47,606 nt of DNA from a virus, in the IMG/VR virus record IMGVR_UViG_3300045988_152054. One strand, 5' to 3'. The notes beneath the pieces are model-generated. The model was not told the DNA's origin, ran no database searches, and saw nothing but the letters and a program-made list of their open reading frames with translations. The position numbers were made by a program, and so were the translations under genes. Shown one piece after another: positions 4,503 to 20,860 of the stretch; position 1 is the first letter of the stretch; every line of letters starts with the position of its first letter.

Positions 4503-4619
4503 TTATTTCATCTCTTGATTAATTAGTTTATCTATTACTTGTGACAGTCTTAAAACGTCCTCTGTCAATCCTAGTTGGCAATATAAACTGCTAAGTATTT
4601 CTTTTAACTCGTCTAGCAT
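4503..4619 (-). CDS. Spo0E-like aspartyl-phosphate phosphatase family micro-protein (38 aa)
   Basis: Not in the ORF track because it is under 60 aa. RBS GAGGTGA, ATG at 4619. Sequence MLDELKEILSSLYCQLGLTEDVLRLSQVIDKLINQEMK contains the SQxxD..LI signature of the Spo0E family. Confidence 0.5.
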   Translation of the reverse strand: MLDELKEILSSLYCQLGLTEDVLRLSQVIDKLINQEMK

Positions 4620-4629
4620 AATATCACCT

Positions 4630-5568
4630 CTAATCATATTTAACATTTATATAATCAAGCACTTCTTTTAATCCCAGCTTGTCCATACAATATTTATACT
4701 GTTTTGGATGCGTATATTTTAATCTTTGAAATCTATTAGGTTCTTTTTCCAGATGACATCCAAACATACAATATATACATCCTGTTCTTTTTTCTCCTGT
4801 TGTTCTATAGTATTTATTGCCTAGCATGTCGCTTTCTTCTACTATGTCTCCATATACTGAACATATTTTCAAATCATTTTTAACTATATATTGAAGCACA
4901 TCTTGTTCTGTCCAAAATCCCATTGGTTGACTTCTGCCTGTATTAAAAGCATTGCATCCAGTTTTAAGATATGCAGCTTCTCTTTGTTGTCCTTCATCTG
5001 CCATAGTTGCTATGAAAGGTACTTTTCCAGCTCTCTTTTCATACTCTTTCATTGGTTTTTTCTTTAGTTCATTACAACATTCATCTGAAATTTTAAAAGG
5101 AGCATCTAATAGAAATTCCCATTTCTTTTTATTAAACTTAGATCCTTCTTCTAATCCCCTTATTTGTCTAACTCTTAATGTATCTTTTCCATCAGCTATA
5201 TTTTTTCTAGCTAATCTTACTGTATTAGATACAGCTTTACTCACTATTGGATATCCTTTTTCTTTAATAACTTTTTTAAATGTTATATTTGGCTTTATTA
5301 TAGTTACATTATCAAATGTTTTTACAAATTGTACTATCTCTGGGAACTCTAACCCAGTATTACTGAACACTGCTTCTATATTTGGGTAAATACTTCTTAC
5401 TATATGTAACAATACTGTACTGTCTTTTCCTCCACTGAAACTTATATATACTCCATCTTCTCCATAGTAATCTACCCATTCTCTTATTCTTAATTTAGTT
5501 TTTTCTACTTTAAGATCTAAGGGATAATTCTGCAATAATTTCAATTCACTTTTTAACACTAACCTCAC
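4630..5568 (-). CDS. Phosphoadenosine-phosphosulfate (PAPS) reductase family / PP-loop ATPase protein
   Basis: PP-loop SFSGGKDS near the N-terminus and C-terminal Cys cluster TGCIYCMFGC. The start codon (GTG) is uncertain. Confidence 0.75.
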   Translation of the reverse strand: MRLVLKSELKLLQNYPLDLKVEKTKLRIREWVDYYGEDGVYISFSGGKDSTVLLHIVRSIYPNIEAVFSNTGLEFPEIVQFVKTFDNVTIIKPNITFKKVIKEKGYPIVSKAVSNTVRLARKNIADGKDTLRVRQIRGLEEGSKFNKKKWEFLLDAPFKISDECCNELKKKPMKEYEKRAGKVPFIATMADEGQQREAAYLKTGCNAFNTGRSQPMGFWTEQDVLQYIVKNDLKICSVYGDIVEESDMLGNKYYRTTGEKRTGCIYCMFGCHLEKEPNRFQRLKYTHPKQYKYCMDKLGLKEVLDYINVKYD

Positions 5569-5655
5569 CTATTTCAATTCATATTTTCATTTGACTATCA
5601 TTAGTAAATAAGAATAGGGAACTACACTGGTATTGCATAATCCCCTATTTAGTTG

Positions 5656-6012
5656 TTATTTTATCCCCAAATATTCTTTTATTACTGCTATTGCATCATC
5701 TGCACTCCAGCAAACCTTACACATATATCCCTGCTTATATAACCAATCTAGCCATTTAGCTTGTTCTATGGTACATTTATTCTTTCCATATTTCATCTCT
5801 ATTGCTAGTCCTAAATATTTACCTTTAGGTGCTAGGAGTAAGATGTCCGGCACTCCAGCCCTCATTCCTAATTTTTTTAATTTAGCTCCATATTTAGGTG
5901 ATCTTTTACTTTCGTTAGGACAATGAAATATCCACTTTAATTCTTCATATTTACAAGATTGCAAATTGCACCATTGAATTACAGTAGCTTGTTCTAAATC
6001 TTCACCTTTCAT
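5656..6012 (-). CDS. VRR-NUC domain nuclease
   Basis: The PD-(D/E)xK-type core is GVPDILLL...LAIEMK. Length of 118 aa is typical. Confidence 0.7.
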   Translation of the reverse strand: MKGEDLEQATVIQWCNLQSCKYEELKWIFHCPNESKRSPKYGAKLKKLGMRAGVPDILLLAPKGKYLGLAIEMKYGKNKCTIEQAKWLDWLYKQGYMCKVCWSADDAIAVIKEYLGIK

Positions 6013-6171
6013 ATTATCACTCCATATATTCCCATTTTAATTTTTCACCTTTAAGTTTTATTAGCGCTTTTTTTAATTACTTTAAATTCTGGTAAATTTA
6101 ACATTCTCCCACCTCTTTGTTTAAAATTTTCCTTGATTGCAACAAATTTCAAGGTGGGTGTAAATAGATTA

Positions 6172-6954
6172 TTATGAAATGTTTTCGATTCTATTTTTAG
6201 CTATATTAAAATACTTTTCGTCTAATTCAATGCCTACAAACCTGCGATTCGTATTTAAACAAGCAACTCCAGTTGACCCAGAACCCATCGTAAAGTCTAA
6301 TACTAAATCATTTTCGTTTGTATATGTTTTTATTAAATATTCAAGTAGTTTTACAGGTTTTTGAGTAGGATGTACTCGTACTCTATTGTTGCATTCGTTA
6401 GCTCTAGCATTAAAGTCTAGCAAATTGATTGGATATTTATATTTAGTGCTTGATGTTTGAATAAAAGCACCACTTTTAATTCCTGAAAACATATCACTTT
6501 TTTTAATTGTATAATTCTTTCCTCTTTTACTAATAAACTCTTTTTCTTCTTTTTCTGTGCGTTCTACCATTTGAGGAATATATTCACATTTACCATTGCT
6601 GAATATACATATATTTTCTATCACCTTTAATGGCATATATTTGACGCATAAAATATTTCCACTATTATTTTTATTCCAATACCAATCATATTTATAATTT
6701 TTAATATTACTCATTCTTAAAGCACTGCTAAATGGTTCGCTTCCAAATAATGCAATTGCTCCATTAGGTTTTATTAATTTGTTTAATCTTAGCCACATCT
6801 CATCTAATGGAATTATATTGTCCCATTTATAGGTAGTTATTCCATAAGGAGGGTCAGTTATAATAGCATTAAATTTAACTCCTAAGCTAATTAGCCCATC
6901 CATTACTTCTAAACAATCTCCTTGATACAATCTATATCTTCCATCTTCAATCAT
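6172..6954 (-). CDS. Orphan DNA methyltransferase (N6-adenine/N4-cytosine, beta class)
   Basis: Motif IV IITDPPYG lies near the N-terminus and motif I FTMGSGSTGVAC near the C-terminus. Confidence 0.85.
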   Translation of the reverse strand: MIEDGRYRLYQGDCLEVMDGLISLGVKFNAIITDPPYGITTYKWDNIIPLDEMWLRLNKLIKPNGAIALFGSEPFSSALRMSNIKNYKYDWYWNKNNSGNILCVKYMPLKVIENICIFSNGKCEYIPQMVERTEKEEKEFISKRGKNYTIKKSDMFSGIKSGAFIQTSSTKYKYPINLLDFNARANECNNRVRVHPTQKPVKLLEYLIKTYTNENDLVLDFTMGSGSTGVACLNTNRRFVGIELDEKYFNIAKNRIENIS

Positions 6955-7035
6955 TCAATCACCTCTATTTTAACCGCTCTAATATTTCAAGAAAGTATAT
7001 ATTATTTATTATTAATCATTTATCTGTAACCACCT

Positions 7036-7137
7036 TTAAGTTTCAATACCCTCTATATTAGAAGTAAAGAAATAATAATTTGATAAACGATATTCTTCTT
7101 TTAAATAATTTTCTGTATATACTCTTTCATATATCAT
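7036..7137 (-). CDS. Possible small ORF (33 aa)
   Basis: ATGA overlap with the upstream small ORF. No recognisable motif. Confidence 0.25.
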   Translation of the reverse strand: MIYERVYTENYLKEEYRLSNYYFFTSNIEGIET

Positions 7138-7298
7138 CTAATCCCCCCCAACAATCTATGATAAACCTTATATAGTTCAGCATATTTGTTTTTATTTAAT
7201 AAATCATGCTCTATCCTTTTTATCTCAAGTTCTTTTATCATTTTTTCTAGGTCCTGCAGCATTTGCATATTTCTTATTTGTAATCCTGTTAATTTCAT
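7134..7298 (-). CDS. Possible small coiled-coil ORF (54 aa)
   Basis: TAATG overlap with the zinc-ribbon gene. Sequence MKLTGLQIRNMQMLQDLEKMIKELE... Confidence 0.35.
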   Translation of the reverse strand: MKLTGLQIRNMQMLQDLEKMIKELEIKRIEHDLLNKNKYAELYKVYHRLLGGIR

Positions 7299-7483
7299 TA
7301 CTTCACCTCTTCTATTATTGGATCATAACTCCATACTCTAACTTCATCTTTTATTCTTCCATTTACTAAATTACCGCATTCTCGACACTGGCTTACTACG
7401 CCTAGTCCTTTTACTTTAAGATGTATCATTGTGCCTCCACAGTTTATGCAGCTTTTTTCTTTACCTCCTAGTACCTTTTTCAT
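7298..7483 (-). CDS. Zinc-ribbon protein
   Basis: CINCGG...CRECG gives two CxxC pairs. It lies 14 nt downstream of the sigma factor gene. Confidence 0.6.
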   Translation of the reverse strand: MKKVLGGKEKSCINCGGTMIHLKVKGLGVVSQCRECGNLVNGRIKDEVRVWSYDPIIEEVK

Positions 7484-7497
7484 TAGTTTTCATCCCC

Positions 7498-8466
7498 TTA
7501 ACTAATTTTCTTTTTCTCTAACTTTTCCAACTTGCTAATGACTTGTTTTATTGTTAGGCATACATTTGCCCTATGTATGCCTAATCTTCTCGCCGTTTCA
7601 GCCTGTGTTAGTCCTTCAATGAATACTAGTTCAATTACACTTCTTTGACGTGCTGTAAGGCAATTTAAATCTATTGTGGCTACATCTATAAATCTATTCT
7701 TATTTCGATGTATTGAATTATCTTTTTTATTTTCACCTTCAAGTATTCTTCTTAGGTTTTTTAATGCTGATATTTCTACTCTTGATATATGTGATTGATA
7801 GTCATTTAGTAGTACTGCTATTTCTGATTGTGTTTTTCCTTCGAAAAATTTCATCTCTATTACTGTTTTTTCCAATTTTGAAAGTTTTTTCATAGCGTTT
7901 AATAGATCTATTTCGGAAATTATTTTGTCCTCTGATATGCTTATATCTCTTATCGTTTCTGAATAGGTAATTTTTCTTTCATTTGGGCATAATTTTATCG
8001 GACTATCCATAGGAATTTTGCCCTCCATAAGGTGTAGCGTCTTTGTAATTTCTTGTATTGTTACTCCCATAATTTCTGATAATTCTTTTAATGTAGGCTC
8101 TCTTTGTAGGCTTTCAAATTTTTTTCTAATTTGCTTGATTTGTTTGTATTGGTCGTAATTTCTTCGTGGTATCCTGAAAGGTACATCATCTCTATTGTCT
8201 CTAAATTCTTTCAGTATCTTACCCACTATGTTTGTCGTTGCATAAGTTGAAAATTTCACATTTAATGTTGGGTCATAATTTTGTATTGAATATAATAATC
8301 CTAGACTTCCAACTTGCATCGCATCGTCAAAGCTTATTGCTTTACCTTTATATTTTTTTGCTTGCGCAATAACAAGTCCCATGTTATTTTCAACGATGTT
8401 TGTTATTGCCATTCTATCACCATTTTGAGCTTTTCTAAACAATTCAACATTTTTATCAATAATCAT
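7498..8466 (-). CDS. Sigma-70 family RNA polymerase sigma factor (group 3, SigF/SigG/FliA-like) with an extra C-terminal region-4-like HTH
   Basis: Region 2 is GLVIAQAKKY..GSLGLLYSIQNYDP..KFSTYATTNIVGKI. Region 4 is LSKLEKTVIEMKFFEGKTQSEIAVLL..SHISRVEISALKNLR. A second region-4-like unit follows: LTARQRSVIELVFIEGLTQAETARRLGIHRANVCLTIKQ (aa ~262-316). Confidence 0.8.
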   Translation of the reverse strand: MIIDKNVELFRKAQNGDRMAITNIVENNMGLVIAQAKKYKGKAISFDDAMQVGSLGLLYSIQNYDPTLNVKFSTYATTNIVGKILKEFRDNRDDVPFRIPRRNYDQYKQIKQIRKKFESLQREPTLKELSEIMGVTIQEITKTLHLMEGKIPMDSPIKLCPNERKITYSETIRDISISEDKIISEIDLLNAMKKLSKLEKTVIEMKFFEGKTQSEIAVLLNDYQSHISRVEISALKNLRRILEGENKKDNSIHRNKNRFIDVATIDLNCLTARQRSVIELVFIEGLTQAETARRLGIHRANVCLTIKQVISKLEKLEKKKIS

Positions 8467-8485
8467 AATTACTCCCCCCTACGGA

Positions 8486-8503
8486 CCAGGGGAATTCCCC
8501 TGG
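8486..8503. repeat. Perfect 18-bp G+C-rich palindrome ccaggggaattcccctgg upstream of the sigma gene
   Basis: Seen directly in the sequence. It lies between the replisome-organizer stop and the sigma factor RBS, and no U-tract follows on the minus strand. Confidence 0.8.
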
Positions 8504-8541
8504 AATATATTAAAAGCAATTGCATATAATATTCATATAAT

Positions 8542-9393
8542 TTAATTTTCTTTTTTTGAGCTCAAATATCTAAAGTATTTAACCTTATCAGCAATGATAG
8601 GGTTATTTGGTTTTTCTCTCATTTCTTGTTCCCATACAATAACTAAATTCTCTGGAGATGTTATTAATCTAAATTTATAATCTTCCTTCATTGCTTTTAT
8701 AAGGTAACCTACTTTATTTTCTATATTTTTAGAGTCCGTTGTTATAATTAATTTTTCTGATAAATAATACATATCTTTATTAGTTTTTAAAAATTCATTT
8801 GTAATAGTATTTATATCTTTTTCATTTAAATAAGGCATATATAATCTAACTTTACCAGCAACATCTTCTATATTTATCTTTTGTTGTTGCTCTAATTCTG
8901 TCTTTAGTTCTGTCTTTATCTCTAAATCTATCTCTTGCTCTATCTCTTGCTCTATCTCTGTCTCTGGTGTAGTTTTGTCTGGACATTGTCCGGACATTTG
9001 TCCCAATCTTAGTTTTTCATCTTCAATTCTTTTCCTATAATTTCTTTTTCTGTCAGCTTCAGTCGTTGATTTTCCAATAAAATCTTGAATATCTAACATA
9101 TATATTGCTCCATTATCAAGTATTTCTATTAATCCTAATTCCAGGAAAATTTTTAATGCTTTCTCAATAACACCCACCGGAAATCTGGTAATATTTGCTA
9201 ACATCGTGGAATTATATGGAATCCTATCATTGAATAATAACTTCCCTTCATTTTTTAAACTTCTAAGATAAAGTTTTAAAAGTATATTAGAATACATATA
9301 TCCATCTGGCATACTTTCAAGCATTATCATTTCATCTCTATCATAAAAATTATCTACTAACCTTAGATAATAATATTTTTTGTTGTCAGCCAA
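8542..9393 (-). CDS. Phage replisome organizer (N-terminal domain family)
   Basis: The N-terminus is MADNKKYYYLRLVDNFYDRDEMIMLESMPDGYMYSNILLKLYLRS, typical of replisome organizers of Firmicute phages. Confidence 0.7.
   Translation of the reverse strand: MADNKKYYYLRLVDNFYDRDEMIMLESMPDGYMYSNILLKLYLRSLKNEGKLLFNDRIPYNSTMLANITRFPVGVIEKALKIFLELGLIEILDNGAIYMLDIQDFIGKSTTEADRKRNYRKRIEDEKLRLGQMSGQCPDKTTPETEIEQEIEQEIDLEIKTELKTELEQQQKINIEDVAGKVRLYMPYLNEKDINTITNEFLKTNKDMYYLSEKLIITTDSKNIENKVGYLIKAMKEDYKFRLITSPENLVIVWEQEMREKPNNPIIADKVKYFRYLSSKKEN
8896..9003. repeat. Iteron-like direct repeats and tandem near-palindromes inside the replisome organizer gene (candidate ori)
   Basis: ttctgtcttta occurs twice (8896, 8908). 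tctatctcttgc occurs three times in tandem (8927, 8939, 8951, the last degenerate). ggacattgtcc / ggacatttgtcc lie at 8981 and 8992. Confidence 0.45.
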
Positions 9394-9405
9394 TTTATAT
9401 CACCT

Positions 9406-9996
9406 CTACTTTTTAACTTTAGCTTCTAATCTTTTACACACTCCGTCATATTGTGATTTTTTTAGTTCTTTTGGTTCTACTCCAAATTCTTTTAAAACTT
9501 GAGACTTTATCTTCTCACTTGATATTCCGACATTATTGCCTAATGTATAAAGTCTCTTAAGCTGTTTTTCAGTTATTCTATAATCGTTACTTTGTTTCTG
9601 TGGTCCTTTAGACTCAAATACGACTGTTCCAAAACCATCACTTGACTGTTTAATTGATGCTTGTTGCAATTGTGCATTTGCTACCTCTTCCTTACTTGCC
9701 ACGCTCTTTTTAATTTCAAATCCTAATATTGCTAATGCTCTTCCAACGGCACTTGTTTCACAGTTTTCTAAAGCTGATGTTTTATTTATAAATGAAGATC
9801 CTTCTTTTTCGTAAGCATATCCAGTAGAAGCCGGAACTTCTGAATTATCTCTGTAAGCTGTTGCTTTCATAACTATTACTTCATTTTCCCATTTAACTAT
9901 TTCTGTTAGTATTCTACCTTCTGGATACTTTTCATAAAATTTCATAATCCTAACATTTACTTCTACATAATCCTTTAAACCTGACTCTTTTCCCAC
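9406..9996 (-). CDS. Rad52/Sak-like single-strand annealing protein (putative)
   Basis: ..ALENCETSAVGRALAILGFEI.. resembles the Rad52-family xAVxxxxxRALxxxG motif. It sits next to the replisome organizer. Confidence 0.5.
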   Translation of the reverse strand: MGKESGLKDYVEVNVRIMKFYEKYPEGRILTEIVKWENEVIVMKATAYRDNSEVPASTGYAYEKEGSSFINKTSALENCETSAVGRALAILGFEIKKSVASKEEVANAQLQQASIKQSSDGFGTVVFESKGPQKQSNDYRITEKQLKRLYTLGNNVGISSEKIKSQVLKEFGVEPKELKKSQYDGVCKRLEAKVKK

Positions 9997-10268
9997 TTTT
10001 CGTTCCCCCTTTCTTGCTTTATGAAGTCCTTAAAAGCTTGTACATATGCTTTATCATATTCTGATAAAGGACTGTTTTCTTTTGAGTACTGTTTTATATA
10101 CTCTTCCAGTTCTTCTATCGGTTTATGACTTTCTAAGCAATGACCACAACCATCTAAATATCCCCATTTACTATCACAGTTGCAATCATAAGGGCTTAAT
10201 AACATAGCATACATTAATCTATTTTCAAAGGTCGGTTCTTCAGAGAAAAAACAATCCCATATTTTCAT
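9975..10268 (-). CDS. Hypothetical protein
   Basis: 97-aa ORF in the operon, Cys-containing. Confidence 0.5.
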   Translation of the reverse strand: MKIWDCFFSEEPTFENRLMYAMLLSPYDCNCDSKWGYLDGCGHCLESHKPIEELEEYIKQYSKENSPLSEYDKAYVQAFKDFIKQERGNEKWEKSQV

Positions 10269-10342
10269 TTACTCTCCCTCTTTATCTATGGTATAATTAA
10301 TTTAATATCAATTTCCATTGGTCCTATTTTATAGGGCCTTTT

Positions 10343-10648
10343 TTATATTCCCATGTAAGCATCTGCTCTATTTTCTCTTTCATCTTCATCTGCTTCCTCA
10401 AGGTCCCTTACTTCTTCTTGCATCATTTCATCAATTTCTTGTAATATTTCTTTTAGGTCCTTTATTTCATATGCAACTCTAATTTTAGATGCTCTCCAGT
10501 ACTCATAATTACAAGCAACTTGTAAATCGTTTGTACTATATCTATCTTTATATAGTTTTATTTGGCTATCACATAGTTCCATGAAACTCTCACATGCTGT
10601 AATCTTATTTTGTATGCTTTCTCTAACTTCATCTAATATCCAGTTCAT
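10343..10648 (-). CDS. Hypothetical acidic protein
   Basis: 101-aa ORF with an acidic C-terminus. Confidence 0.5.
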   Translation of the reverse strand: MNWILDEVRESIQNKITACESFMELCDSQIKLYKDRYSTNDLQVACNYEYWRASKIRVAYEIKDLKEILQEIDEMMQEEVRDLEEADEDERENRADAYMGI

Positions 10649-10649
10649 A

Positions 10650-10796
10650 TTAATCCCTCTTATCCTCTAAGTTGTATATCTTTTCTTCAATTTTCTTAAT
10701 GATTTCTTCTAATTTAATGTTCTTTTCTCTTTCTGCTAGGGCAATTCTCTGCCAGTACTCTATTTGGCTTTGTAAATGTTTAATATAGTCTTGCAT
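10650..10796 (-). CDS. Possible small coiled-coil ORF (48 aa)
   Basis: ATG at 10796. MQDYIKHLQSQIEYWQRIALAEREKN... with a TAATATG junction to the next gene. Confidence 0.4.
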   Translation of the reverse strand: MQDYIKHLQSQIEYWQRIALAEREKNIKLEEIIKKIEEKIYNLEDKRD

Positions 10797-10811
10797 TATA
10801 TAAACCCCCCT

Positions 10812-11537
10812 TTAATATTCAAAACTTAATTGACCATTCAATCCTTGTATGGCATACACTAACATCTCACTAGGTTTCCAATTTTCTATATATTTAAGTG
10901 CATCATCATATTTTTTTTGGGCAATATTTTTATAACTGTTAACCTTGAATGAAGTTTTTAAATCTCTATAAAATTCTGCAAATAGTTTTTTGCTTAGTTT
11001 CTTGTATGCTCCTGTATGTTTTCCACCTAGTAAATATACAGCTCTTGTACTTATTGCATTTCTTAGATTTTCTGCTAACTCATAGTCTATTGTCATCTTA
11101 TTTTCTATACCAGTTACTCTTTTTTCTATTTCCTGTTGTTTCTTATCCAACATTAATATTGATCTTAATATGCCTTTGTATGGATCTTCTATCATTTCAT
11201 TAAATTTTTTAACATATCTAGCAGTAAATACTATCCCTTTTTCTCCAGTCATTTTATTAGCTAACATATCGCAGCCTAATTTAGTACATTCATAACAAAC
11301 TTTTTCTCTATTCATACTATCTTTATAACTTGATTTTATGAAATATGAGATACTGCCCATTTGGGCTTTATCTAATGTAGGTATAATTCCTATATGAGTT
11401 TTATCTCCTTCTATCATTCTTAAAACTTTAGCATGTTCAACTCCCATCATTTCTGCTACTTCATAACTAGGTATTGTTTGTACTGCTTGTCCTTCATTAT
11501 TTTTTAAAACTTTGTAACTGCTATATAAATCTGACAT
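10812..11537 (-). CDS. Rha-family phage regulatory protein / antirepressor
   Basis: ..IPSYEVAEMMGVEHAKVLRMIEG.. and ..LGCDMLANKMTGEKG.. are typical of Phage_pRha. Confidence 0.7.
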   Translation of the reverse strand: MSDLYSSYKVLKNNEGQAVQTIPSYEVAEMMGVEHAKVLRMIEGDKTHIGIIPTLDKAQMGSISYFIKSSYKDSMNREKVCYECTKLGCDMLANKMTGEKGIVFTARYVKKFNEMIEDPYKGILRSILMLDKKQQEIEKRVTGIENKMTIDYELAENLRNAISTRAVYLLGGKHTGAYKKLSKKLFAEFYRDLKTSFKVNSYKNIAQKKYDDALKYIENWKPSEMLVYAIQGLNGQLSFEY

Positions 11538-11540
11538 TTA

Positions 11541-11666
11541 CTATTCCCCCTTATTTATTTTTCTTAATACCATATCTTGAAATTTAAAATATTCTTCCCA
11601 ATCATTTTCTGCCTCACCTGTTCTTATAAGATTACAATAAATCTTAAGTATCCAAGTTACTGACAT
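11541..11666 (-). CDS. Possible small ORF (41 aa)
   Basis: Strong RBS GGGGGGAG 6 nt before the ATG at 11666. No recognisable motif. Confidence 0.35.
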   Translation of the reverse strand: MSVTWILKIYCNLIRTGEAENDWEEYFKFQDMVLRKINKGE

Positions 11667-11682
11667 TTATTACTCCCCCCTT

Positions 11683-11871
11683 TTAATCCATTTGGTCCAA
11701 CCAATTTAAAAATGATTCTGTTGGAATTTTATATCTATTTCCTATTTTTATTACTTTGAACAGATCTCCAGTAGCCAGTGCTTGTCTTACTAAGTTGTAA
11801 GCTGTTTTTTGAGATATTTGTAGTATGCTTTGAATTTCCTTGACAGTAAGGACTTTCTTATTGTATTTCAT
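11683..11871 (-). CDS. Excisionase-family (MerR-like) helix-turn-helix DNA-binding protein
   Basis: LTVKEIQSILQISQKTAYNLVRQ...KIGNRYKIPTESFLNWL. Confidence 0.6.
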   Translation of the reverse strand: MKYNKKVLTVKEIQSILQISQKTAYNLVRQALATGDLFKVIKIGNRYKIPTESFLNWLDQMD

Positions 11872-11888
11872 TTTTTTATCCCCCTTGT

Positions 11889-12499
11889 TTAATCAATATA
11901 TTTCCATACCATCTTTTCTCCTGTAATTGGATGTTTACCTGCGGATTTTCTATCTCCCCTACAACATGCACTAATCCCAGAAGTTTTTATATTATACTTT
12001 TCTTCTACTTCTTCTATATAACTAAATATCTCTCCAGTAGTTATACATAATATTTTTCTAGCTCTCGGATTTTTATTTCCTTTTATTGATTTACTTATAT
12101 TTTTTTATGTTTTTCTGATAATTTTTTGTTCTTTATTTTTTCACTTGATTTTAATGATTTACTCAAATTCTTGTTGTGATTTTTATAGTTACAGTTATAT
12201 CTATGGGTACACCATTCTAAATTATTTGCTAAATTATTAAGTTTATTTTCATCTTTATGATTAATGCAAGGATAATTATTAGGATTTTTTATAAATACCA
12301 TTGCAACCAATCTATGAACTAAAAAAATTTTTCTTTGATTTTCTTTGCTAAGAGATACTATTTTATAACCTGAGCCACTAATTCCTTGACTCAAAATTTT
12401 AATTTTATTAAACTTTAGACTCTTAACTCTACCTAGATTAGAAACTTGATATAAACCTTCATAACCTTCAATATCTTTCCATATTTCTATATTAACCAC
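11889..12499 (-). pseudogene. Free-standing NUMOD4/HNH_3 homing endonuclease split by a frameshift at an A7 run
   Basis: The N-terminal ORF 12095-12499 (IWKDIEGYEGLYQVSNLGRVKS..INHKDENKLNN..LEWC) stops right after the A7 tract (12100-12106). The -1 frame continues ..NISKSIKGNKNPRARKILCITTGEIFSYIEEV..GISACCRGDRKSAGKHPITGEKMVWKYID to 11889, the usual C-terminal module of this family. Confidence 0.7.
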
Positions 12500-12568
12500 A
12501 CTCCCTTAACAGTTAAAACTTTCTTCATATCCCATCATCCCCCTAATGTTTTTTGTTAGCTTAATATG

Positions 12569-12799
12569 TTATGCTTCTTTATGAAGCACTTTTGGATAAA
12601 AAAATAAGTCATCCATTGTTATTTGTGGTTCATATTGCTTGAAAAATATTGTTATTGAAACCATTTCACTTCTTGTGAATTCAGCTCTGACATTATTTTC
12701 TTTATTGCAATATGTCGGCAATTTTATATTTAATAAATCAGCTAATACCCTTTGAGGTATTTTGTATTTTGCTCTAAATCCAGCAACATTGTTTGGCAT
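12569..12799 (-). CDS. Cro-like XRE-family HTH regulator
   Basis: It is divergent from the cI-like gene across an operator-containing gap. HTH is PQRVLADLLNIKLPTYCNKE. Confidence 0.6.
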   Translation of the reverse strand: MPNNVAGFRAKYKIPQRVLADLLNIKLPTYCNKENNVRAEFTRSEMVSITIFFKQYEPQITMDDLFFYPKVLHKEA

Positions 12800-12827
12800 T
12801 TATATAACCTCCTTTAATTTGTTCTAG

Positions 12828-12921
12828 CTTCATATTGAAGTTTATACTTATATATTAATGCTTCATATTGAAGTTGTCAATATTATTTTTAATTTTTTTC
12901 GAAAAAATATTCATATTGAAG
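12828..12921. promoter_or_regulatory. Genetic-switch region with three copies of a 13-bp palindromic operator cttcaTATtgaag
   Basis: Copies lie at 12828-12840, 12861-12873 and 12909-12921 (the last is attcatattgaag). All sit between the divergent cro-like and cI-like genes. Confidence 0.75.
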
Positions 12922-12979
12922 CTATAACTTTCATATAATTATTAATTATGGTATATTTGAAGTAATGGGAGGTGTTGAT

Positions 12980-13309
12980 ATGACTAGCTTTGGTGATAGG
13001 CTTCAATTTTTAATAAAAAGTAATGGTATTACTCAAAAAGACTTAGCTGATACGTTAAATGTAAAGCGTGGATCTGTTTCAAACTGGGTAACAAATAGGA
13101 GGTTTCCTGATGCCGAGACATTAATAAAAATAGCTGACTACTTTCATGTAACAATAGATTTTCTGCTAAGAGGGGCTGATGAATATTTAAATAAAGAATA
13201 TGATGAAATAAGTAGTTTATATAAAAAGTATTCAGATTTAAGTGAAGACGATAAAGAATTAATTGATACTATGATTCAAACTATGATAAAAAAAAGAAAA
13301 GACAAATAA
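12980..13309 (+). CDS. cI-like XRE-family repressor
   Basis: HTH is ITQKDLADTLNVKRGSVSNWVTNRRFP. I take the ATG at 12980, 7 nt after GGGAGGTG (the track ORF begins at 12965). Confidence 0.7.
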   Translation: MTSFGDRLQFLIKSNGITQKDLADTLNVKRGSVSNWVTNRRFPDAETLIKIADYFHVTIDFLLRGADEYLNKEYDEISSLYKKYSDLSEDDKELIDTMIQTMIKKRKDK

Positions 13310-13310
13310 A

Positions 13311-13418
13311 TTACTTTACTTGTCTTAGTTCATTAATTTTATCAATTATTTTTTTATAATCATCTTTGTTTTTCTTTTTTATCTTCAATACTTTTTCAAT
13401 AAACTCTTCTTTTTTCAT
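13311..13418 (-). CDS. Possible small basic ORF (35 aa)
   Basis: RBS AGGGGAGA, ATG at 13418. MKKEEFIEKVLKIKKKNKDDYKKIIDKINELRQVK, convergent with the cI-like gene. Confidence 0.3.
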   Translation of the reverse strand: MKKEEFIEKVLKIKKKNKDDYKKIIDKINELRQVK

Positions 13419-13498
13419 TGTCTCTCCCCTTTCTAATAAAATTGTAGCAGAAAAAATATCACTATCAGCGATATTTACGACTTAAACTGACATAATAA

Positions 13499-13518
13499 TA
13501 AAAACTGTGGATTAATCA
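13499..13518. repeat. Left copy of a perfect 20-bp inverted repeat (taaaaactgtggattaatca)
   Basis: It is the exact reverse complement of 15163-15182 and lies just upstream of the XRE-integrase pair. Confidence 0.9.
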
Positions 13519-13526
13519 AATATATT

Positions 13527-13766
13527 TTGAAAGGTGAAATAATTTTGATTAAAACAGCAAGAAAAAAACATAAATTAACACAAAAGGAACTCGCAGAACG
13601 TTGTAATTTGTCGCAAAGTTTTCTGAGTGAATTAGAAAATAAGCATAATAAAAAGAATGTAACTATCAAGCAAATAGTAAAATTAGCAAATATATTAAAA
13701 ATAAATCATCATGAATTGGCATGTTGGTTTATAGACAAGGAATTAGGGGTGTTTGAAGTTGGATAA
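13527..13766 (+). CDS. XRE-family HTH protein co-oriented and overlapping with the integrase gene
   Basis: LTQKELAERCNLSQSFLSELENKHNK. TTG start is uncertain (13527 or 13545). It overlaps the int start by 14 nt. Confidence 0.6.
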   Translation: MKGEIILIKTARKKHKLTQKELAERCNLSQSFLSELENKHNKKNVTIKQIVKLANILKINHHELACWFIDKELGVFEVG

Positions 13767-14895
13767 TATCAAGAGTACTTTTATAAGAAAAAGAAATAAT
13801 AACTACAATGTTATAGTTGAATACTATGACGAAGCTGGCAAAATAAAACAAAAAAGTATTGCTAAATACGGATTAAAGAAAAAAGCAGAAAGGCATCTAA
13901 TAGAACTAAAAGCAGAAATACAAAATGAGAAATATATGTTTAGTAATGATATAACTGTTACTGATAGATGCTACAGATATATTAATGAAAATAAACGTGA
14001 TTGGTCGCCTTATACAGTAAAAAATAGATTAAGTTGGGTAAAATTAAATGTAGCTCCATTTTTCAAAGATACTAAAATGGAAAACTTAACAATTCACCAA
14101 ATTCAAAGATATTTAAATTATCTTTATGAAAATTTTACTGTTGAAAGTGCTAAAACAAGATTTGGTTTTTTTAGGTCAGTAGTAAAAGAATGCTATAGAA
14201 TGAAAGAAATAAAAGAAAATTTATGTGACTTTGTAAAAAGCCCTAAAAAAGAGGCTTCAAGTATAGCTGATGTTTATACAAGGGAAGAAATTTTACAACT
14301 CTTTAAATTGTTAGAAGATAAGCATTTTGAACTTCCAATTTTACTTATAGTACTTTTAGGACTTAGAAAAGGTGAAGCATACGGACTTACATGGGATGAT
14401 ATTGATTTTGATAACAACACAGTTAAAATAGAACAAATTTCTATTTATCTAGACGGAAGTTTAATTTTTAAATCTCCTAAAACAACTGATAGTAAAAGAT
14501 TATTATCTGTTCCGATTGAGCTCATGGATAAGCTAAAAAAGGAAAAGCTAAAACAAAATGAATTAAAACTTCAAGGTGTTTTAGAAAATAAATATAATTT
14601 GGTTTGCTTAAATAAAGAATTAAAACCATATAAAAATGATGATTTAAATAGATACTATCGAAAGTTTTGCAAAGAAAATAATTTTAGACAGTTAAGAATA
14701 CATGATTTAAGACATACTAATGCAACATTATTATTATTATCTGGTACAGATATGAAAACTGTATCTGGAAGGTTAGGACATACAGATATCAAAATAACAA
14801 TGAATAAATATAGTCATGTATTAGAAGAAATGGATAGAAAGGCAAGTGAAAATCTTAGCAATATATTATTTAACCAAAAGTCAACAGGTAATTAA
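13753..14895 (+). CDS. int: Tyrosine site-specific integrase
   Basis: N-terminal arm-binding-like NNYNVIVEYYDEAGKIKQKSI. Catalytic region ..LRKGEAYGL..HDLRHTNATLLL..GHTDIKITMNKYSHV (R, HxxR, H, Y). Confidence 0.9.
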   Translation: MKLDNIKSTFIRKRNNNYNVIVEYYDEAGKIKQKSIAKYGLKKKAERHLIELKAEIQNEKYMFSNDITVTDRCYRYINENKRDWSPYTVKNRLSWVKLNVAPFFKDTKMENLTIHQIQRYLNYLYENFTVESAKTRFGFFRSVVKECYRMKEIKENLCDFVKSPKKEASSIADVYTREEILQLFKLLEDKHFELPILLIVLLGLRKGEAYGLTWDDIDFDNNTVKIEQISIYLDGSLIFKSPKTTDSKRLLSVPIELMDKLKKEKLKQNELKLQGVLENKYNLVCLNKELKPYKNDDLNRYYRKFCKENNFRQLRIHDLRHTNATLLLLSGTDMKTVSGRLGHTDIKITMNKYSHVLEEMDRKASENLSNILFNQKSTGN

Positions 14896-15162
14896 TGTAA
14901 GTCTTATTTTGTGGCAGTCAATTTGTCAGTTTTATAAAAATGTCAGCTAAAAATCAAGTCAAATGTATAGCAAATAATATCAATATATATTAAGAAGAGT
15001 AAGCAGTATACACATTTATATAAATATATATTACTGCTTACTTATACTTAATTACTCATATACTGAGTACTTCTATATGTATAAAAGTGTGTATTTTTAA
15101 AGTGTACGCTTGGTTGATTCATAACTTTTGTCAGTTTTAAGTCAGTAAGCATAAAAAACTAA
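14896..15162. other. Candidate attP region
   Basis: Non-coding DNA directly after int. ttgtcagtttta occurs twice (14923-14934, 15128-15139) along with further gtcag motifs. There is an 11-bp inverted repeat agtaagcagta/tactgcttact (14998-15008 / 15032-15042) and tactca-N5-tgagta. Confidence 0.45.
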
Positions 15163-15182
15163 TGATTAATCCACAGTTTTTA
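15163..15182. repeat. Right copy of the perfect 20-bp inverted repeat (tgattaatccacagttttta), followed by a perfect DnaA-box consensus TTATCCACA at 15188-15196
   Basis: Seen directly in the sequence. Confidence 0.9.
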
Positions 15183-15241
15183 AGAAGTTATCCACAACTT
15201 ATTTTATGATATAATTAAAATAAAAAATGGGGGTATACTTT

Positions 15242-15442
15242 ATGATAAGTTATGATCCATTATGGAAACTACTAATAGATAAAAAAATTACCAAAACAGA
15301 ATTGAGGGAAAAAGTAGGCTTTAGTACAAATACTTTGTCAAAACTTTCTAAGAATGAATCTGTGACATTAAGTATATTAGAAAAGATTTGTTTATGTCTA
15401 AATTGTAAAATAGAAGATGTAGTAGAAATAAAAAAAGAGTAG
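15242..15442 (+). CDS. Small XRE/Cro-type HTH transcriptional regulator
   Basis: ITKTELREKVGFSTNTLSKLSKNESV. ATG at 15242 lies 8 nt after GGGGG. Confidence 0.65.
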   Translation: MISYDPLWKLLIDKKITKTELREKVGFSTNTLSKLSKNESVTLSILEKICLCLNCKIEDVVEIKKE

Positions 15443-15448
15443 GTTATC

Positions 15449-16012
15449 CTACTCTTTTATTTGTTCTATTAAATCACTTAAATCAAGTTTACATTCTCTT
15501 ATATCTAATATATTATCATTTTTACATTTTTTATTACTTACACATAAAATTGAAGGCTCAAAAGGAAAATATTCTTTATATACCTTTTTATAATGTAAGT
15601 CTAAATATTTATTTAAATTTAATTTTTTAGTTCTTTCAACTTCACAATAATATATTTTTATTTCTTCATTAATTCTCAATACTAATAACAAATCAACTAT
15701 AACTTTATCAATTTTAAAAGGGCATCTATATTTTAATATTTCTATATTATTTTTCATAAGTTCAGCTATAATTTGTGAACATACTATTTTATGTTTCCAT
15801 TGAACTGGTTTTCTTCCAGTATAGAAAATATTTTGCCCTGGTATACTTTCTCTAAAACACTTAACATAATTTATTGTGATTAATTTTTTCATTCGTGCTT
15901 GGCAACTTCTTAAACTTCCATTAAAAAATATAATTGATAAACTTTTAGTATCACAAATACCCATTTCATCAATAAATTCTTTGATTTTTTGATCTCTATT
16001 TGTAATTATCAT
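15449..16012 (-). CDS. Replication-relaxation (Replic_Relax) family protein
   Basis: N-terminal winged-helix-like ..RDQKIKEFIDEMGICDTKSLSIIFFNGSLRSCQARMKKL.. and later ..YYCEVER.. It is paired with an FtsK-like gene, as this family commonly is. Confidence 0.55.
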   Translation of the reverse strand: MIITNRDQKIKEFIDEMGICDTKSLSIIFFNGSLRSCQARMKKLITINYVKCFRESIPGQNIFYTGRKPVQWKHKIVCSQIIAELMKNNIEILKYRCPFKIDKVIVDLLLVLRINEEIKIYYCEVERTKKLNLNKYLDLHYKKVYKEYFPFEPSILCVSNKKCKNDNILDIRECKLDLSDLIEQIKE

Positions 16013-16020
16013 ACTATCAC

Positions 16021-17238
16021 CTACAATTTATCTAAAAATGATAAGTCACTTAATTTTTTGACCTTCTCATTCGCTCCAGTAACGTTTTTATTTCCTTCGT
16101 CTTGTAACTTATCCTTTAAGAAATTCAAGCTCTTAGAAGTGCCTTTATTTTGATATTTTAAGGTATAGTCCTTAACTTGATCATCTGTGATAAAATATCC
16201 TTGAAATTCTTCTATATTAGCACCATTTTTTATAAATCCATGCCCATTTCCTCTTAATTTTTCTGCTCCTTCTTCATCAAGTGCTACTACACTATTTTTT
16301 CTATCTTCACATTTTAAAACTATACGATTGTTTATGTTAGCTTTTACTATATTATCTATAACTGTATTATCTGGTCTTTGTGTAGTTAAAAAAACATAGC
16401 ATCCACTTGCTCTACTTATAGCAATTAATTGTTTTAATAATTTCATTGCACTTTTATTTTTATCTTCTAGTAGCATAACTATTTCTTCTATATACAATAC
16501 CTGATATTTAAGTTTCTTAACTCCTTTAAGCTTATTATATTCAAATATGTTAGTTACCTCATTTTCCATAAATAAATTATATCTTCTTCTAGTTTCTTCT
16601 AATAAATTGCTTATAACTTCAGTTGTATCTTCTACTGTATATACAAATTTTTTCGTGTGTTGTAAATTCCTAAATAAATTAAGCTCTACCATTTTTAAAT
16701 CACATAAATATAATTCAACTTCATTTGGGCTGTATAAATTAACTATGCTAGTGAGTATTACTTTCGTCATAACAGACTTACCACTTCCAGTTGTCCCAAC
16801 TACATAAGTATGAGGATTTTCTTTTAAATCTAATGTTATTGTCTTATTTGAAGATTTACCTATATTAAATTTAATATGTTTAGCAGTTCTATTTTGAATT
16901 TCATACTCTATAACTTTTGGTAATTTCTTTAACATCTCTATTCTAACCCAGCCACTAGATGCTTCCATTTTAACTCCATTGTTTAAATATAATTCTAGTG
17001 CATCTTTATGCTTTAAAAAATCATCAACGCTTAATCCAGCAGGAACAAATACAACAAATACAGTTTTATTATCTATAACAACCTCTGGATATTCACCTAA
17101 ACTATTTTTTATATTTACTGCCTTAAAAAATTCATCTAAACTTTTCTTTGGCTCTATCCATCCATCAAATACCCATGTAAAAAATATTTTTCCAGCATCC
17201 CAAAATAAATCAAATATAGGTTGAAGTGCATTACTCAT
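16021..17238 (-). CDS. FtsK/SpoIIIE-family DNA translocase ATPase
   Basis: Walker A is VVGTTGSGKSV. Walker-B-like QVLYIEEIVML. Also ..FLTTQRP... No clear N-terminal transmembrane helices. Confidence 0.8.
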   Translation of the reverse strand: MSNALQPIFDLFWDAGKIFFTWVFDGWIEPKKSLDEFFKAVNIKNSLGEYPEVVIDNKTVFVVFVPAGLSVDDFLKHKDALELYLNNGVKMEASSGWVRIEMLKKLPKVIEYEIQNRTAKHIKFNIGKSSNKTITLDLKENPHTYVVGTTGSGKSVMTKVILTSIVNLYSPNEVELYLCDLKMVELNLFRNLQHTKKFVYTVEDTTEVISNLLEETRRRYNLFMENEVTNIFEYNKLKGVKKLKYQVLYIEEIVMLLEDKNKSAMKLLKQLIAISRASGCYVFLTTQRPDNTVIDNIVKANINNRIVLKCEDRKNSVVALDEEGAEKLRGNGHGFIKNGANIEEFQGYFITDDQVKDYTLKYQNKGTSKSLNFLKDKLQDEGNKNVTGANEKVKKLSDLSFLDKL

Positions 17239-17483
17239 ATATATACCTCCTAAATATAGGTATTAAGGCAAATATATTCTTCGCATTAAAATAAGCCAAT
17301 CTTTGTATATAGAATCTTTTTTTAAATATTCCATATACGTCTCATACGAATATATATGCGAATACCCCTTTGACAATAATATATGCACATATACCAATAA
17401 TATTTCCTTATTTTGAGAAAATATTTTGCAACTTTTAAATATAGTTAGCATATATATAAGTAAATAAAAAAAATAAGGGGGAT

Positions 17484-17630
17484 ATGAAAATGAAAGAAAT
17501 GTTAGAAAAAACTAGCATGGAAATGTTAAAAGAATACTTCTATGATGCAAGAGGATATTATCCAGAAGATGATTTTTTTACAAAGGAAGAACTTGTAAGC
17601 ATAATTCTGAAAGATATGGAGGGCAAATAA
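17484..17630 (+). CDS. Small acidic hypothetical protein (46-48 aa)
   Basis: RBS AAGGGGG with ATGs at 17484 and 17490. Its stop abuts the next ATG. Confidence 0.45.
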   Translation: MKMKEMLEKTSMEMLKEYFYDARGYYPEDDFFTKEELVSIILKDMEGK

Positions 17631-17837
17631 ATGAATGATTATAAAGTTAGTTGGACAGATAATGAAGGTTTAGAATTTTTTAGTGAATATTTAAAGAGAG
17701 AAGATGCTTTTATTTTATTTAATGAAATATGTGAAAATAAGGTTGATGAAGATCAAATAGAAGCGTGTTTATATGATCCAGATAATTTTCCAATAAAAAC
17801 TTATAATAATATAGAAAATAAGCTTTATGTAATGTAA
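17631..17837 (+). CDS. Small acidic hypothetical protein
   Basis: 68-aa ORF followed by a terminator. Confidence 0.55.
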   Translation: MNDYKVSWTDNEGLEFFSEYLKREDAFILFNEICENKVDEDQIEACLYDPDNFPIKTYNNIENKLYVM

Positions 17838-17843
17838 TTGCAA

Positions 17844-17875
17844 AGGCTAGGGATTAAATTTCCTAGTCTTTTTTG
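17844..17875 (+). terminator. Rho-independent terminator (plus strand)
   Basis: aggctaggga / ttcctagtct stem (two G-U pairs) followed by TTTTTT. Confidence 0.55.
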
Positions 17876-17971
17876 TCGAACGATTATTGTAATATTTTCT
17901 AAAACACAATTGCATTTTGGTTACCAAAGTTTTACTATATAAGTATAAATAAAAGAAAAGAGGTTAGTAAA

Positions 17972-18154
17972 TTGAACGAGATCAAAAGGAACATCATCAT
18001 AGGTAAAGTTGGTGGAAATGCCAATGAAAACTCGATTAATTATAAAGTGAGTTTACCAGCTAAAATGGTAAAAGAATTAGGTATAACAAAAGAAGATAGA
18101 AAGATTATTTTGACTTATGAGGATGACAAAATAATAATAAAAAAAGATAAATAA
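17972..18154 (+). CDS. AbrB/MazE/SpoVT-family DNA-binding domain protein
   Basis: VSLPAKMVKELGITKEDRKIILTYEDDKIIIKK closely parallels, as I recall it, the B. subtilis AbrB N-domain VVIPIELRRTLGIAEKDALEIYVDDEKIILKK. TTG start. Confidence 0.65.
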   Translation: MNEIKRNIIIGKVGGNANENSINYKVSLPAKMVKELGITKEDRKIILTYEDDKIIIKKDK

Positions 18155-18168
18155 AGGAGATGTTGAAT

Positions 18169-20806: not shown

Positions 20807-20825
20807 AATATCACCCCTTTTTTGT

Positions 20826-20860
20826 ATTAAAAAAGGACCTAAAATTAATTAGATCCTTTA
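20826..20860 (-). terminator. Rho-independent terminator (minus strand)
   Basis: aaaggaccta (20832-20841) / tagatccttt (20850-20859). The single mispair is a G-U on the minus-strand RNA. A U-run follows. Confidence 0.55.

Follow-up and report, generated by a model that had tools for sequence, protein, structure and literature searches.

We analyzed a 47,606-nucleotide stretch of viral DNA (IMG/VR record IMGVR_UViG_3300045988_152054; "the window" hereafter denotes this whole stretch), which carries four genes that resemble components of the endospore developmental network: a Spo0E-like micro-gene (4503-4619, minus strand), a SigF/SigG-like sigma factor gene (7498-8466, minus strand), an FtsK/SpoIIIE-family ATPase gene (16021-17238, minus strand) and a gene for a small AbrB-fold protein (17972-18154, plus strand). 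All four open reading frames (ORFs) are present and look like real genes. The initial annotation had joined them into one distributed four-node kit for hijacking host sporulation; comparison of related loci showed that they are not inherited together. The sigma and Spo0E-like genes are backbone genes of a phage lineage, co-inherited in most relatives, and the FtsK-like and AbrB-fold genes lie on swappable cassettes that occur in a minority. By these linkage patterns, the set splits into a conserved pair and two accessory cassettes that are independent of each other. The explanation that we prefer, and to which we give about an even chance, is that the four genes belong to three unrelated modules, of which the sigma factor and the Spo0E-like protein would act on sporulation and the FtsK-like and AbrB-fold proteins would not. 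The former two appear to be the sole genes with a credible sporulation link.

The linkage was determined in 29 loci anchored on the sigma or FtsK-like gene, 33 loci anchored on the gene for a 121-amino acid coiled-coil protein (4124-4489, minus strand) and 80 loci anchored on the replisome-organiser gene. The Spo0E-like gene was found directly upstream of the coiled-coil gene in 32 of the 33 coiled-coil-anchored loci. All such loci whose sequence reached at least 5 kb upstream had a SigF/G-type sigma gene on the upstream side of the Spo0E-like gene, at a distance of 2-7 kb. Neither the sigma nor the Spo0E-like gene was carried by about 70 more distant phages, which share only the N-domain of the replisome organiser. 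The FtsK-like gene occurred together with a gene for a 187-amino acid protein, an HTH_26 regulator gene and one tyrosine integrase gene in 9 of the 29 loci; the remaining loci had a serine-recombinase or other integrase module in place of this cassette, and the sigma and Spo0E-like genes persisted beside these other lysogeny modules. The AbrB-fold gene was detected in only 4-5 of the 29 loci. Furthermore, the four genes are spread over different transcription units and both strands, with three on the minus and the AbrB-fold gene on the plus strand. Within the window, the unit of the sigma gene ends at a terminator-like hairpin (5649-5613), and the Spo0E-like gene lies about 3 kb beyond the sigma gene.

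The window is the complete genome of a temperate tailed phage with a Firmicutes-type layout. An identical 99-bp direct repeat at both ends (1-99 and 47508-47606) and a large terminase gene that spans the end junction (46313-47606 plus 1 to about 452, minus strand) indicated a circular assembly and a complete phage genome of about 47.5 kb (47,507 bp). Its GC content is about 29%, and the minus strand carries nearly all genes within 12.8 to 0.4 kb and 47.5 to 19.1 kb. The cI-like and cro-like genes are divergent; in their intergenic region (12800-12964), the partly palindromic, operator-like repeat ACTTCAATATGAAG occurs three times. The early genes encode a Rha/ORF6C antirepressor, a Phage_rep_org_N replisome organiser, the sigma factor, a methylase and VRR-NUC, PAPS-reductase-like, ThyX-like and MazG-like proteins. 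They are followed by an ArpU/RinA-like regulator, HNH, TerS, TerL, portal, ClpP, capsid and tail genes and a holin-amidase pair. The tyrosine integrase and the amidase are separated by an accessory region of low GC content (14.9-19.1 kb).

The host was assigned through a prophage (L001) on a 298-kb metagenomic scaffold, which encodes a sigma protein identical to that of the window and shares 97-99.7% nucleotide identity with the window over the early and packaging genes. The chromosomal gene adjoining this prophage is 100% identical to one in a metagenome-assembled genome (MAG) of a Terrisporobacter species, and is 71-75% identical in T. petrolearius, T. muris and another Terrisporobacter MAG. 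Identity between the scaffold and the Terrisporobacter MAG extends to position 3798, and the two separate 30 bases ahead of the prophage recombinase gene. Additionally, the lysis genes of the window match those of Terrisporobacter phage TPDSL_ph2. Taken together, these comparisons assign the host as a gut Terrisporobacter (Peptostreptococcaceae), a genus that forms endospores.

The sigma factor comprises 322 amino acids and is supported by Pfam, NCBIfam and PHROG matches. Its Pfam scores of 50 bits for region 2, 78 bits for region 4 and a weak 18.6 bits for region 3 indicated a group-3 sigma-70 architecture, and the protein falls in phrog_351. The three best NCBIfam models were SigB/F/G (TIGR02980, 168 bits), SigG (163 bits) and SigF (145 bits), which scored far above FliA, SigB, RpoD and SigE/K; the protein stays below every NCBIfam cut-off (234, 372 and 321 bits for the three best models, respectively). 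Thus, the SigF/SigG-like label holds at the level of best-matching models and not at that of equivalogs: by sequence the protein is solidly placed in the SigB/F/G subfamily, closest to SigG and SigF. Three sigma alleles found at the same position in related loci, with 100%, about 61% and about 28% identity to the window protein, all scored best as SigF/G-type. Beyond the phage clade, whose members are at least 49% identical, the nearest relatives are cellular SigG proteins of about 256 amino acids with 31-35% identity, and their alignments cover about 73% of the phage protein, namely the first ~240 residues. Given this range of identity and the wide gap to the phage clade, we reject a recent capture of a host sigG. 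A search of GTDB species genomes for the sigma protein found no relative. The remainder of the protein holds an extra C-terminal, second region-4-like helix-turn-helix (HTH) domain (about residues 260-322; 7501-7689, minus strand). Pfam Sigma70_r4 matched two stretches, the two copies share 32% identity (pairwise E=4e-7), and the last ~65 residues taken alone still matched sigma region-4 models.

The native operon contexts spoIIAA-spoIIAB-sigF and spoIIGA-sigE-sigG are absent around the phage gene, which is flanked by the replisome-organiser gene and a zinc-ribbon ORF. An 18-bp, GC-rich perfect palindrome (CCAGGGGAATTCCCCTGG, 8486-8503), located between the replisome-organiser gene and the ribosome-binding site of the sigma gene, arose in 0 of 100 shuffles of this 29% GC genome. 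It is kept in 11 related loci, including one (L011) whose sigma factor is only 28% identical, and no T-run stands behind it, so it is not a canonical terminator. The zinc-ribbon ORF (7298-7483, minus strand) starts 15 nt after the sigma gene, encodes a 61-amino acid protein with two CxxC pairs and is kept in relatives. We considered this protein as a Gin/CsfB-type anti-sigmaG factor and dropped the idea, as it had no match to Pfam Gin and only non-specific zinc-ribbon noise.

The Spo0E-like micro-gene encodes 38 amino acids. A Shine-Dalgarno-like GAGGTG lies 5-6 nt upstream of its ATG; an alternative start giving 47 amino acids (to 4646) is possible and has no ribosome-binding site. The ORF is called as a gene in many public contigs, and its pooled ratio of nonsynonymous to synonymous polymorphism (pN/pS) was 0.53 over 15 distinct alleles. 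Against Pfam SpoOE-like (PF09388, gathering score 23), the 38-amino acid form scored 21.6 bits (E=2e-4) and the 47-amino acid form 20.8 bits; searches of NCBIfam and PHROG with the protein gave no match. An indexed search returned 70 homologues, all at least 69% identical, and PF09388 was matched by 17 of 21 aligned close relatives (best E 4e-6). An exhaustive hidden Markov model (HMM) search of 1.8 billion representatives then gave 73 hits, of which 56 small ones were examined. PF09388 was matched by 21 of these 56 more distant relatives (best E 3.7e-10), and no other Pfam family was found among them. PF09388 is essentially confined to endospore-forming lineages and their phages.

Comparison of the profile of the 21 close relatives with the PDB placed a Spo0E-like protein of B. 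anthracis (2bzb) at the top, with E=0.059, in an alignment that takes in the whole hairpin together with the S..D.LIN segment. The Spo0E/YisI/YnzD signature is S-Q-E-L-D with a catalytic Asp; the corresponding residues of the phage protein read L25-S26-Q27-V28-I29-D30, so that the middle pair differs from the canonical E-L. Among the 56 relatives, S26 never varies, L25 and D30 are kept in at least 90% and G17 is nearly invariant, giving an LSQxxD motif. The AlphaFold2 (AF2) model is a helix-turn-helix hairpin with helices at residues 2-16 and 20-37 (predicted local distance difference test [pLDDT] score 92). The protein is probably a divergent member of the Spo0E family, an assignment that is supported but weak: the resemblance claimed in the initial annotation is borne out by the relatives, by 2bzb and by the S-Q-x-x-D motif, and the protein's own score stays under the threshold.

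The coiled-coil protein encoded by the constant downstream partner of this gene had weak ZapB-, SMC- or coiled-coil-type Pfam matches only. In the window, a PAPS-reductase-like gene (4630-5568, minus strand) stands between the terminator-like hairpin (5613-5649), which is conserved, and the Spo0E-like gene. It also matches the BrxP and SspD PAPS-reductase domains, and Schwartz et al. 2023 (PMC10294663) include genes of its type, 'yitB', among the sporulation homologues. Most relatives do not have the PAPS-reductase gene, and the Spo0E-like gene is there the first after the hairpin, 38 nt on.

The FtsK-like protein (405 amino acids) was borne out at the family level and in its motor domain only. 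It matched PF01580 at 95.7 bits and phrog_1358 at E=2e-71, and it carries the Walker A motif GTTGSGKS at residue 148 and TQRP at residue 286 of a RecA-like motor domain. It had no match at E<=0.1 to Pfam FtsK_4TM, alpha or gamma. Only one 19-residue window reached a Kyte-Doolittle value of 1.6, at residues 53-71 and with a borderline 1.62. Against the FtsK equivalog model the protein scored 93 bits for a cut-off of 1566, and the alignment stopped at position 1289 of 1355. A motor without the four-transmembrane (4-TM) anchor and the sequence-reading gamma domain would be poorly suited to pump DNA through the sporulation septum. The initial annotation had named this protein an FtsK/SpoIIIE-family translocase within a kit that might help the genome enter the forespore, a SpoIIIE-type role that the missing 4-TM, alpha and gamma domains and the plasmid-type partner described below contradict. 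As judged from these domains, the protein is not a SpoIIIE analogue or stand-in and would belong to a DNA-handling module of a mobile element.

That partner is the 187-amino acid protein, a remote replication-relaxation-type protein encoded in the same transcription unit (15449-16012, minus strand). It matched phrog_9996 (E=6e-12) and, weakly, phrog_2190 'replication initiation protein' (E=1.4e-4), and it is named 'Replication-relaxation' in third-party annotation. On Thermoanaerobacterium plasmids, its match is a protein annotated as replication-relaxation and encoded beside an FtsK gene, with 24% identity (E=2e-4). On a 35-kb plasmid of Paraclostridium bifermentans, the FtsK-like protein is 44% identical to that of the window and its neighbour is 39% identical to the 187-amino acid protein; this pair lies next to parM, and the plasmid also carries an amidase and methylases. 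Bacillus phage Pookie has FtsK followed by Replic_Relax next to its lysis genes, and its partner protein matches PF13814 at 39 bits; direct comparison of the 187-amino acid protein with Pookie gp27 gave E=0.057 only, and tblastn of the protein against GenBank phages gave no match. Homologues of the FtsK-like protein itself occur in phages of Listeria, Enterococcus, Staphylococcus and Mycobacterium.

The cassette also holds the tyrosine integrase (13753-14895, plus strand; PF00589 match and co-occurrence) and a 71-amino acid HTH_26 (Cro/C1-type) regulator (15227-15442, plus strand), which is 100% conserved wherever the cassette occurs. A bidirectional terminator-like hairpin (15433-15458) closes both the FtsK-like operon and the HTH_26 gene. 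Upstream of the operon, a sigma-70-type promoter-like site (17349-17376, minus strand), identified by consensus match only, falls in the 245-bp divergent intergenic region 17239-17483. In three relatives (L097, L104 and L109), an FtsK-like allele of 57-58% identity lies beside replication-relaxation-type and integrase genes of 93-99% identity, which indicates recombination within the cassette. A perfect 20-nt inverted repeat (TAAAAACTGTGGATTAATCA, 13499-13518 and 15163-15182) brackets the XRE and tyrosine-integrase genes, with each arm closely preceding an HTH gene (starts at 13527 and 15227). Copies of TAAAAACTGTGGATTAATCA were present in 10 of 10 fetched relatives with this integrase, and both arms in 7 of 7 that span both positions; the repeat may act as a common operator or mark the edge of the cassette. 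A search for direct repeats on either side of the FtsK-like cassette, as for a nested element, gave nothing convincing, this inverted repeat around the integrase genes being the only repeat found. A defence-system reading of the accessory region was unsupported by a PADLOC scan, in which the FtsK-like protein matched only the ATPase parts of SspH, mad8 and HerA and its neighbours matched nothing.

The AbrB-fold gene starts with a TTG codon and encodes 60 amino acids. The protein scored 19.4 bits against PF04014 MazE_antitoxin (SpoVT/AbrB-type; cut-off 24.7) and 15.4 bits against TIGR01439 (cut-off 28.3), and it matched phrog_2329, a PHROG of no assigned function, at E=1.7e-18. Sequence matches in the PDB were weak (C56 E=0.12; AbrB-N E=0.6-0.8). 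Its AF2 model (pLDDT 81) has a beta-beta-alpha-beta-beta topology, and the first nine Foldseek neighbours were all MazE, AbrB, C56 or SpoVT, at E=0.26-2.7; MazE and AbrB-N reached a probability of 0.91-0.93 but E=0.26-0.33. Full-length AbrB has about 94-96 amino acids and includes a C-terminal multimerisation domain, and the phage protein ends straight after the fourth strand, where the C-terminal half of AbrB would start. These models suggest a member of the swapped-hairpin (AbrB/MazE/SpoVT) superfamily of small DNA-binding-type proteins, a resemblance at the fold level with nothing specific to AbrB; the AbrB N-domain label thus stands for the fold and no further. Many antitoxins and phage regulators are members of this superfamily as well.

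The AbrB-fold gene belongs to a rightward operon that starts from the 245-bp intergenic region and encodes 48- and 68-amino acid proteins, the AbrB-fold protein and, directly downstream of it, a 313-amino acid predicted lipoprotein (18160-19101, plus strand) with a signal peptide and a ...MVGC lipobox. The lipoprotein had no family match in Pfam, NCBIfam or PHROG. Its gene and that of the acidic 68-amino acid protein showed no toxin family and no PADLOC match. Most likely, the 60-amino acid protein is a putative local DNA-binding regulator of this variable accessory cassette, which ends in the lipoprotein gene.

Profile HMM searches for the four families, part of a check that the initial annotation had itself proposed, were solid at the family level for the sigma factor and the FtsK-like protein and sub-threshold for the Spo0E-like and AbrB-fold proteins. 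In the explanation that we prefer, the sigma and Spo0E-like genes, which lie in the lytic-direction run downstream of the cro-like gene, would be expressed after infection or induction. Clostridial Spo0A is phosphorylated directly, without a phosphorelay. The Spo0E-like protein would bind Spo0A~P and lower it, and the phage sigma factor would capture host core RNA polymerase and direct it to phage genes, to mistimed forespore-type promoters or to both. Acting together, the two could keep a starving host from finishing a spore while the phage replicates, and either action might spare the phage being sealed into an unproductive developmental programme. The FtsK-like protein, its gene and that of the 187-amino acid protein being transcribed from their own promoter-like site and tied to one tyrosine-integrase cassette, would most likely handle the element's own DNA, in segregation, resolution or transfer of an episomal form. 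All of these biochemical activities, and any effect on sporulation, are predictions built on the gene models, the family and fold resemblances, the linkage and the host genus described above.

Several observations weigh against this explanation. Two of the four family calls lie under curated cut-offs, among them the PF09388 score of the 38-amino acid protein. A broader profile of its relatives (A3) found no match in the PDB, so that 2bzb was lost although the narrow profile (A1) had given it. Foldseek with the 38-amino acid model was non-discriminating, with histidine-kinase DHp hairpins of CpxA and designed helical bundles on top and all E values above 3, because a two-helix hairpin is too simple a fold for the search to be informative. 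Four relatives carry the Spo0E-like gene with no detectable sigma gene, indicating that the two genes are separable. When both strands of the phage genome were searched with the B. subtilis sigmaF/sigmaG promoter consensus and compared with dinucleotide shuffles, there was no enrichment and no intergenic match, so that the search assigned no phage targets to the sigma factor. The 31-35% identity of the sigma factor to SigG is in the range of those tested Bacillus phage sigma factors that had a weak or no effect on spore yield (PMC9429907), and its kept position also fits a phage-internal regulator of middle genes. For the FtsK-like cassette, the 187-amino acid protein had no direct Pfam match to Replic_Relax (PF13814).

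Part of these observations would be expected if no gene of the four acted on sporulation: the sigma factor would be a phage middle-gene factor like SPO1 gp28, the 38-amino acid hairpin a small regulator or adaptor, and the others ordinary mobile-element parts. We regard this possibility as unlikely, yet as the strongest competitor. It is favored by the position of the sigma gene, which stays directly after the replication genes even at 28% identity, as for a core regulator, by sigma scores that are all under the equivalog cut-offs, by the sub-threshold HMM score and non-specific fold search of the Spo0E-like protein, and by the pairing of the Spo0E-like gene with an unrelated coiled-coil gene. 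It is disfavored by the finding of SpoOE-like as the sole Pfam family among the 56 relatives, with the signature Ser and Asp invariant or nearly so, and by the ArpU/RinA-type late regulator that the phage already has directly upstream of its packaging genes. Moreover, SigF/G-type phage sigma factors are essentially confined to endospore-forming lineages and their phages, and some of them are non-essential for lytic growth (PMC9429907).

A two-gene anti-sporulation role, as proposed in our preferred explanation, is plausible from the sequences. A stronger form of it, which we consider doubtful, is that the sigma factor and the Spo0E-like protein, perhaps with the coiled-coil protein, would make up a dedicated anti-sporulation device of gut Peptostreptococcaceae phages, in which a viral Spo0A~P phosphatase blocks entry into sporulation and the double-region-4 sigma factor re-targets or evades host anti-sigma control. 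If this were true, the tandem region-4 sigma factor would be a previously undescribed sigma architecture.

For the accessory side, the block of integrase, HTH_26, replication-relaxation-type and FtsK-like genes could instead be a semi-autonomous plasmid-like or conjugation-type module, serving the persistence or spread of double-stranded DNA without virions through TraB-like transfer or episomal maintenance. The occurrence of the FtsK/replication-relaxation pair on plasmids, including its place beside parM in P. bifermentans, speaks for it, as do the promoter-like site and terminator of its own, the movement of the block as a unit among relatives, with the 57-58% FtsK-like allele swapped beside a 93-99% identical partner, and the 20-nt inverted repeat that brackets the integrase genes. 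Against it, the window showed no relaxase, no partition genes and no replication origin, the plasmids that match are classed as non-mobilizable in PLSDB, and contigs with the exact FtsK-like protein are all phage-sized or shorter; we give this alternative a rather small chance.

The least probable explanation by far is the one from which the analysis started, that the four genes form one coordinated sporulation-hijack kit, with dephosphorylation of Spo0A, repression in the transition state, sigma activity in a compartment and translocation of DNA into the forespore as its parts, which would either hold the host in vegetative growth or bring the phage genome into the forespore. In its favor, the host forms spores, all four genes resemble families that include a sporulation protein, sigF/G, spoIIIE and abrB/spoVT homologues are enriched in phages of spore formers (PMC10294663) and spo0E and abrB homologues lie beside phage quorum-sensing systems (bioRxiv 10.1101/2021.07.15.452460), but the four are neither co-inherited nor co-transcribed, the FtsK-like protein has homologues in plasmids and phages of non-spore-formers and is without the 4-TM anchor and gamma domain that SpoIIIE needs at the septum, and the 60-amino acid protein has neither an AbrB-specific feature nor the C-terminal domain.

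We therefore retain the division into a sigma/Spo0E-like pair, with a possible role in sporulation, and two accessory cassettes without one. The gain is a cleaner dissection, in which two candidates are kept and the FtsK-like and AbrB-fold genes are not counted as sporulation genes by the names "SpoIIIE" and "AbrB" alone. This phage lineage is common in human-gut metagenomes, and 718 indexed blocks of a public collection contain the identical sigma protein. Spore formation drives the persistence and transmission of gut Firmicutes, and by blocking or mistiming it phages could influence which strains pass from host to host; the present pair would be a compact anti-sporulation candidate in the Peptostreptococcaceae, to which C. 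difficile belongs. Both the general idea and the single elements of the finding have been published before, in work on gut phages. The novelty is modest: the linkage of Spo0E-like, coiled-coil and SigF/G-like genes in a Peptostreptococcaceae phage lineage and the tandem region-4 sigma factor may be new. In public records, the sigma factor, the FtsK-like protein and the 187-amino acid protein are named, and the two small proteins are listed as hypothetical.

Three further features of the window were noted. A stretch of 595 bp without a credible ORF (1656-2250), between the ArpU/RinA-like regulator gene and a gene for a 123-amino acid protein, is kept in relatives and has a terminator-like hairpin (1710-1683) at its end; it showed no Rfam family and no tRNA, scans for which gave no match anywhere in the window, and it could hold a late promoter, a pac/cos site or an RNA of a new kind. 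A 1392-amino acid tail-fibre-region protein (21075-25253, minus strand) has glycoside hydrolase family 2 domains (Glyco_hydro_2, Glyco_hydro_2_C and DUF4982) and is a possible depolymerase or receptor-binding enzyme. Finally, the gap 20807-21074 contains, upstream of the holin region, a 32-codon ORF (MALLYIALVLCLIGILIGILSIIGIIVLYKSI, 20881-20979, minus strand) whose product would be one hydrophobic helix; no tool called it as a gene.

In comparison with known systems, the 60-amino acid protein is like the N-domains of AbrB, Abh and SpoVT and like MazE in its beta-beta-alpha-beta-beta topology, and it aligns with AbrB residues 15-48. Unlike AbrB and MazE, it has a longer beta1-beta2 loop with a conserved GKVGGNANENS segment, and, unlike MazE/VapB antitoxin genes, its gene is adjoined by a lipoprotein gene and by no toxin gene. 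The FtsK-like protein shares the RecA-type motor, Walker A and TQRP with SpoIIIE/FtsK; the latter have about 790-1330 amino acids, whereas the window protein has 405 and is without the 4-TM, alpha and gamma domains. The closer parallel is the FtsK/replication-relaxation module of Firmicutes phages and plasmids, which has the same order and adjacency in Bacillus phages Pookie and Pony, in RBClin15 (PMC11526630) and on Thermoanaerobacterium and Paraclostridium plasmids; the window differs in its 187-amino acid partner, which is too diverged to match PF13814 directly. Homologues of 31 sporulation genes, including sigF/sigG, spoVT, abrB, spoIIIE and yitB (PAPS reductase), are enriched in phages of spore formers in human-gut viromes (Schwartz et al. 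2023, PMC10294663), whose authors warn that genes of the partition type may have a part in plasmid-like lysogeny.

Bernard et al. 2021 (bioRxiv 10.1101/2021.07.15.452460) described genes for Spo0E and AbrB in phages and prophages, with many Spo0E and AbrB HMM matches in the Gut Phage Database, and Spo0E homologues are annotated in Brevibacillus phages (PMC4909266). Like the named members of the family, B. subtilis Spo0E/YisI/YnzD and B. anthracis BA5174 (PDB 2bzb), the 38-amino acid protein forms, in its model, a hairpin of two antiparallel helices, the second of which opens with S-Q-x-x-D, and it aligns with 2bzb end to end. Unlike them, it has the motif SQVID in place of the canonical SQELD and, at 38 amino acids, is among the shortest. 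Its gene also differs in context from the phage spo0E genes of Bernard et al. 2021, lying next to the coiled-coil gene and not beside a quorum-sensing receptor.

Sporulation-type sigma factors in Bacillus phages, which the initial annotation had mentioned as earlier reports, are confirmed in the literature. SigF/G homologues are encoded by Bacillus phages, as in Eldridge g168/g169, Goe3 g157 and SP-10 g120, and expression of such homologues in B. subtilis activates sporulation genes and lowers the spore yield by up to 99%, an effect that grows with similarity to host SigF/G (Schwartz et al. 2022, PMC9429907); sigma factors of Wbeta and other B. anthracis phages have been described as well (Schuch & Fischetti 2009, PMC2716549). 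The window sigma factor resembles the Bacillus phage SigF/G factors in being a group-3 protein of the same phrog_351 that scores best with SigF/SigG models and comes from a phage of an endospore former, and it is 26-29% identical to the SigF-like factors of Bacillus phages (Herelleviridae) by tblastn. Unlike those phages, the one described here is temperate, has a genome of about 47 kb and infects an anaerobic gut Peptostreptococcaceae host, and, unlike cellular SigG, its sigma factor carries a second region-4-like domain.

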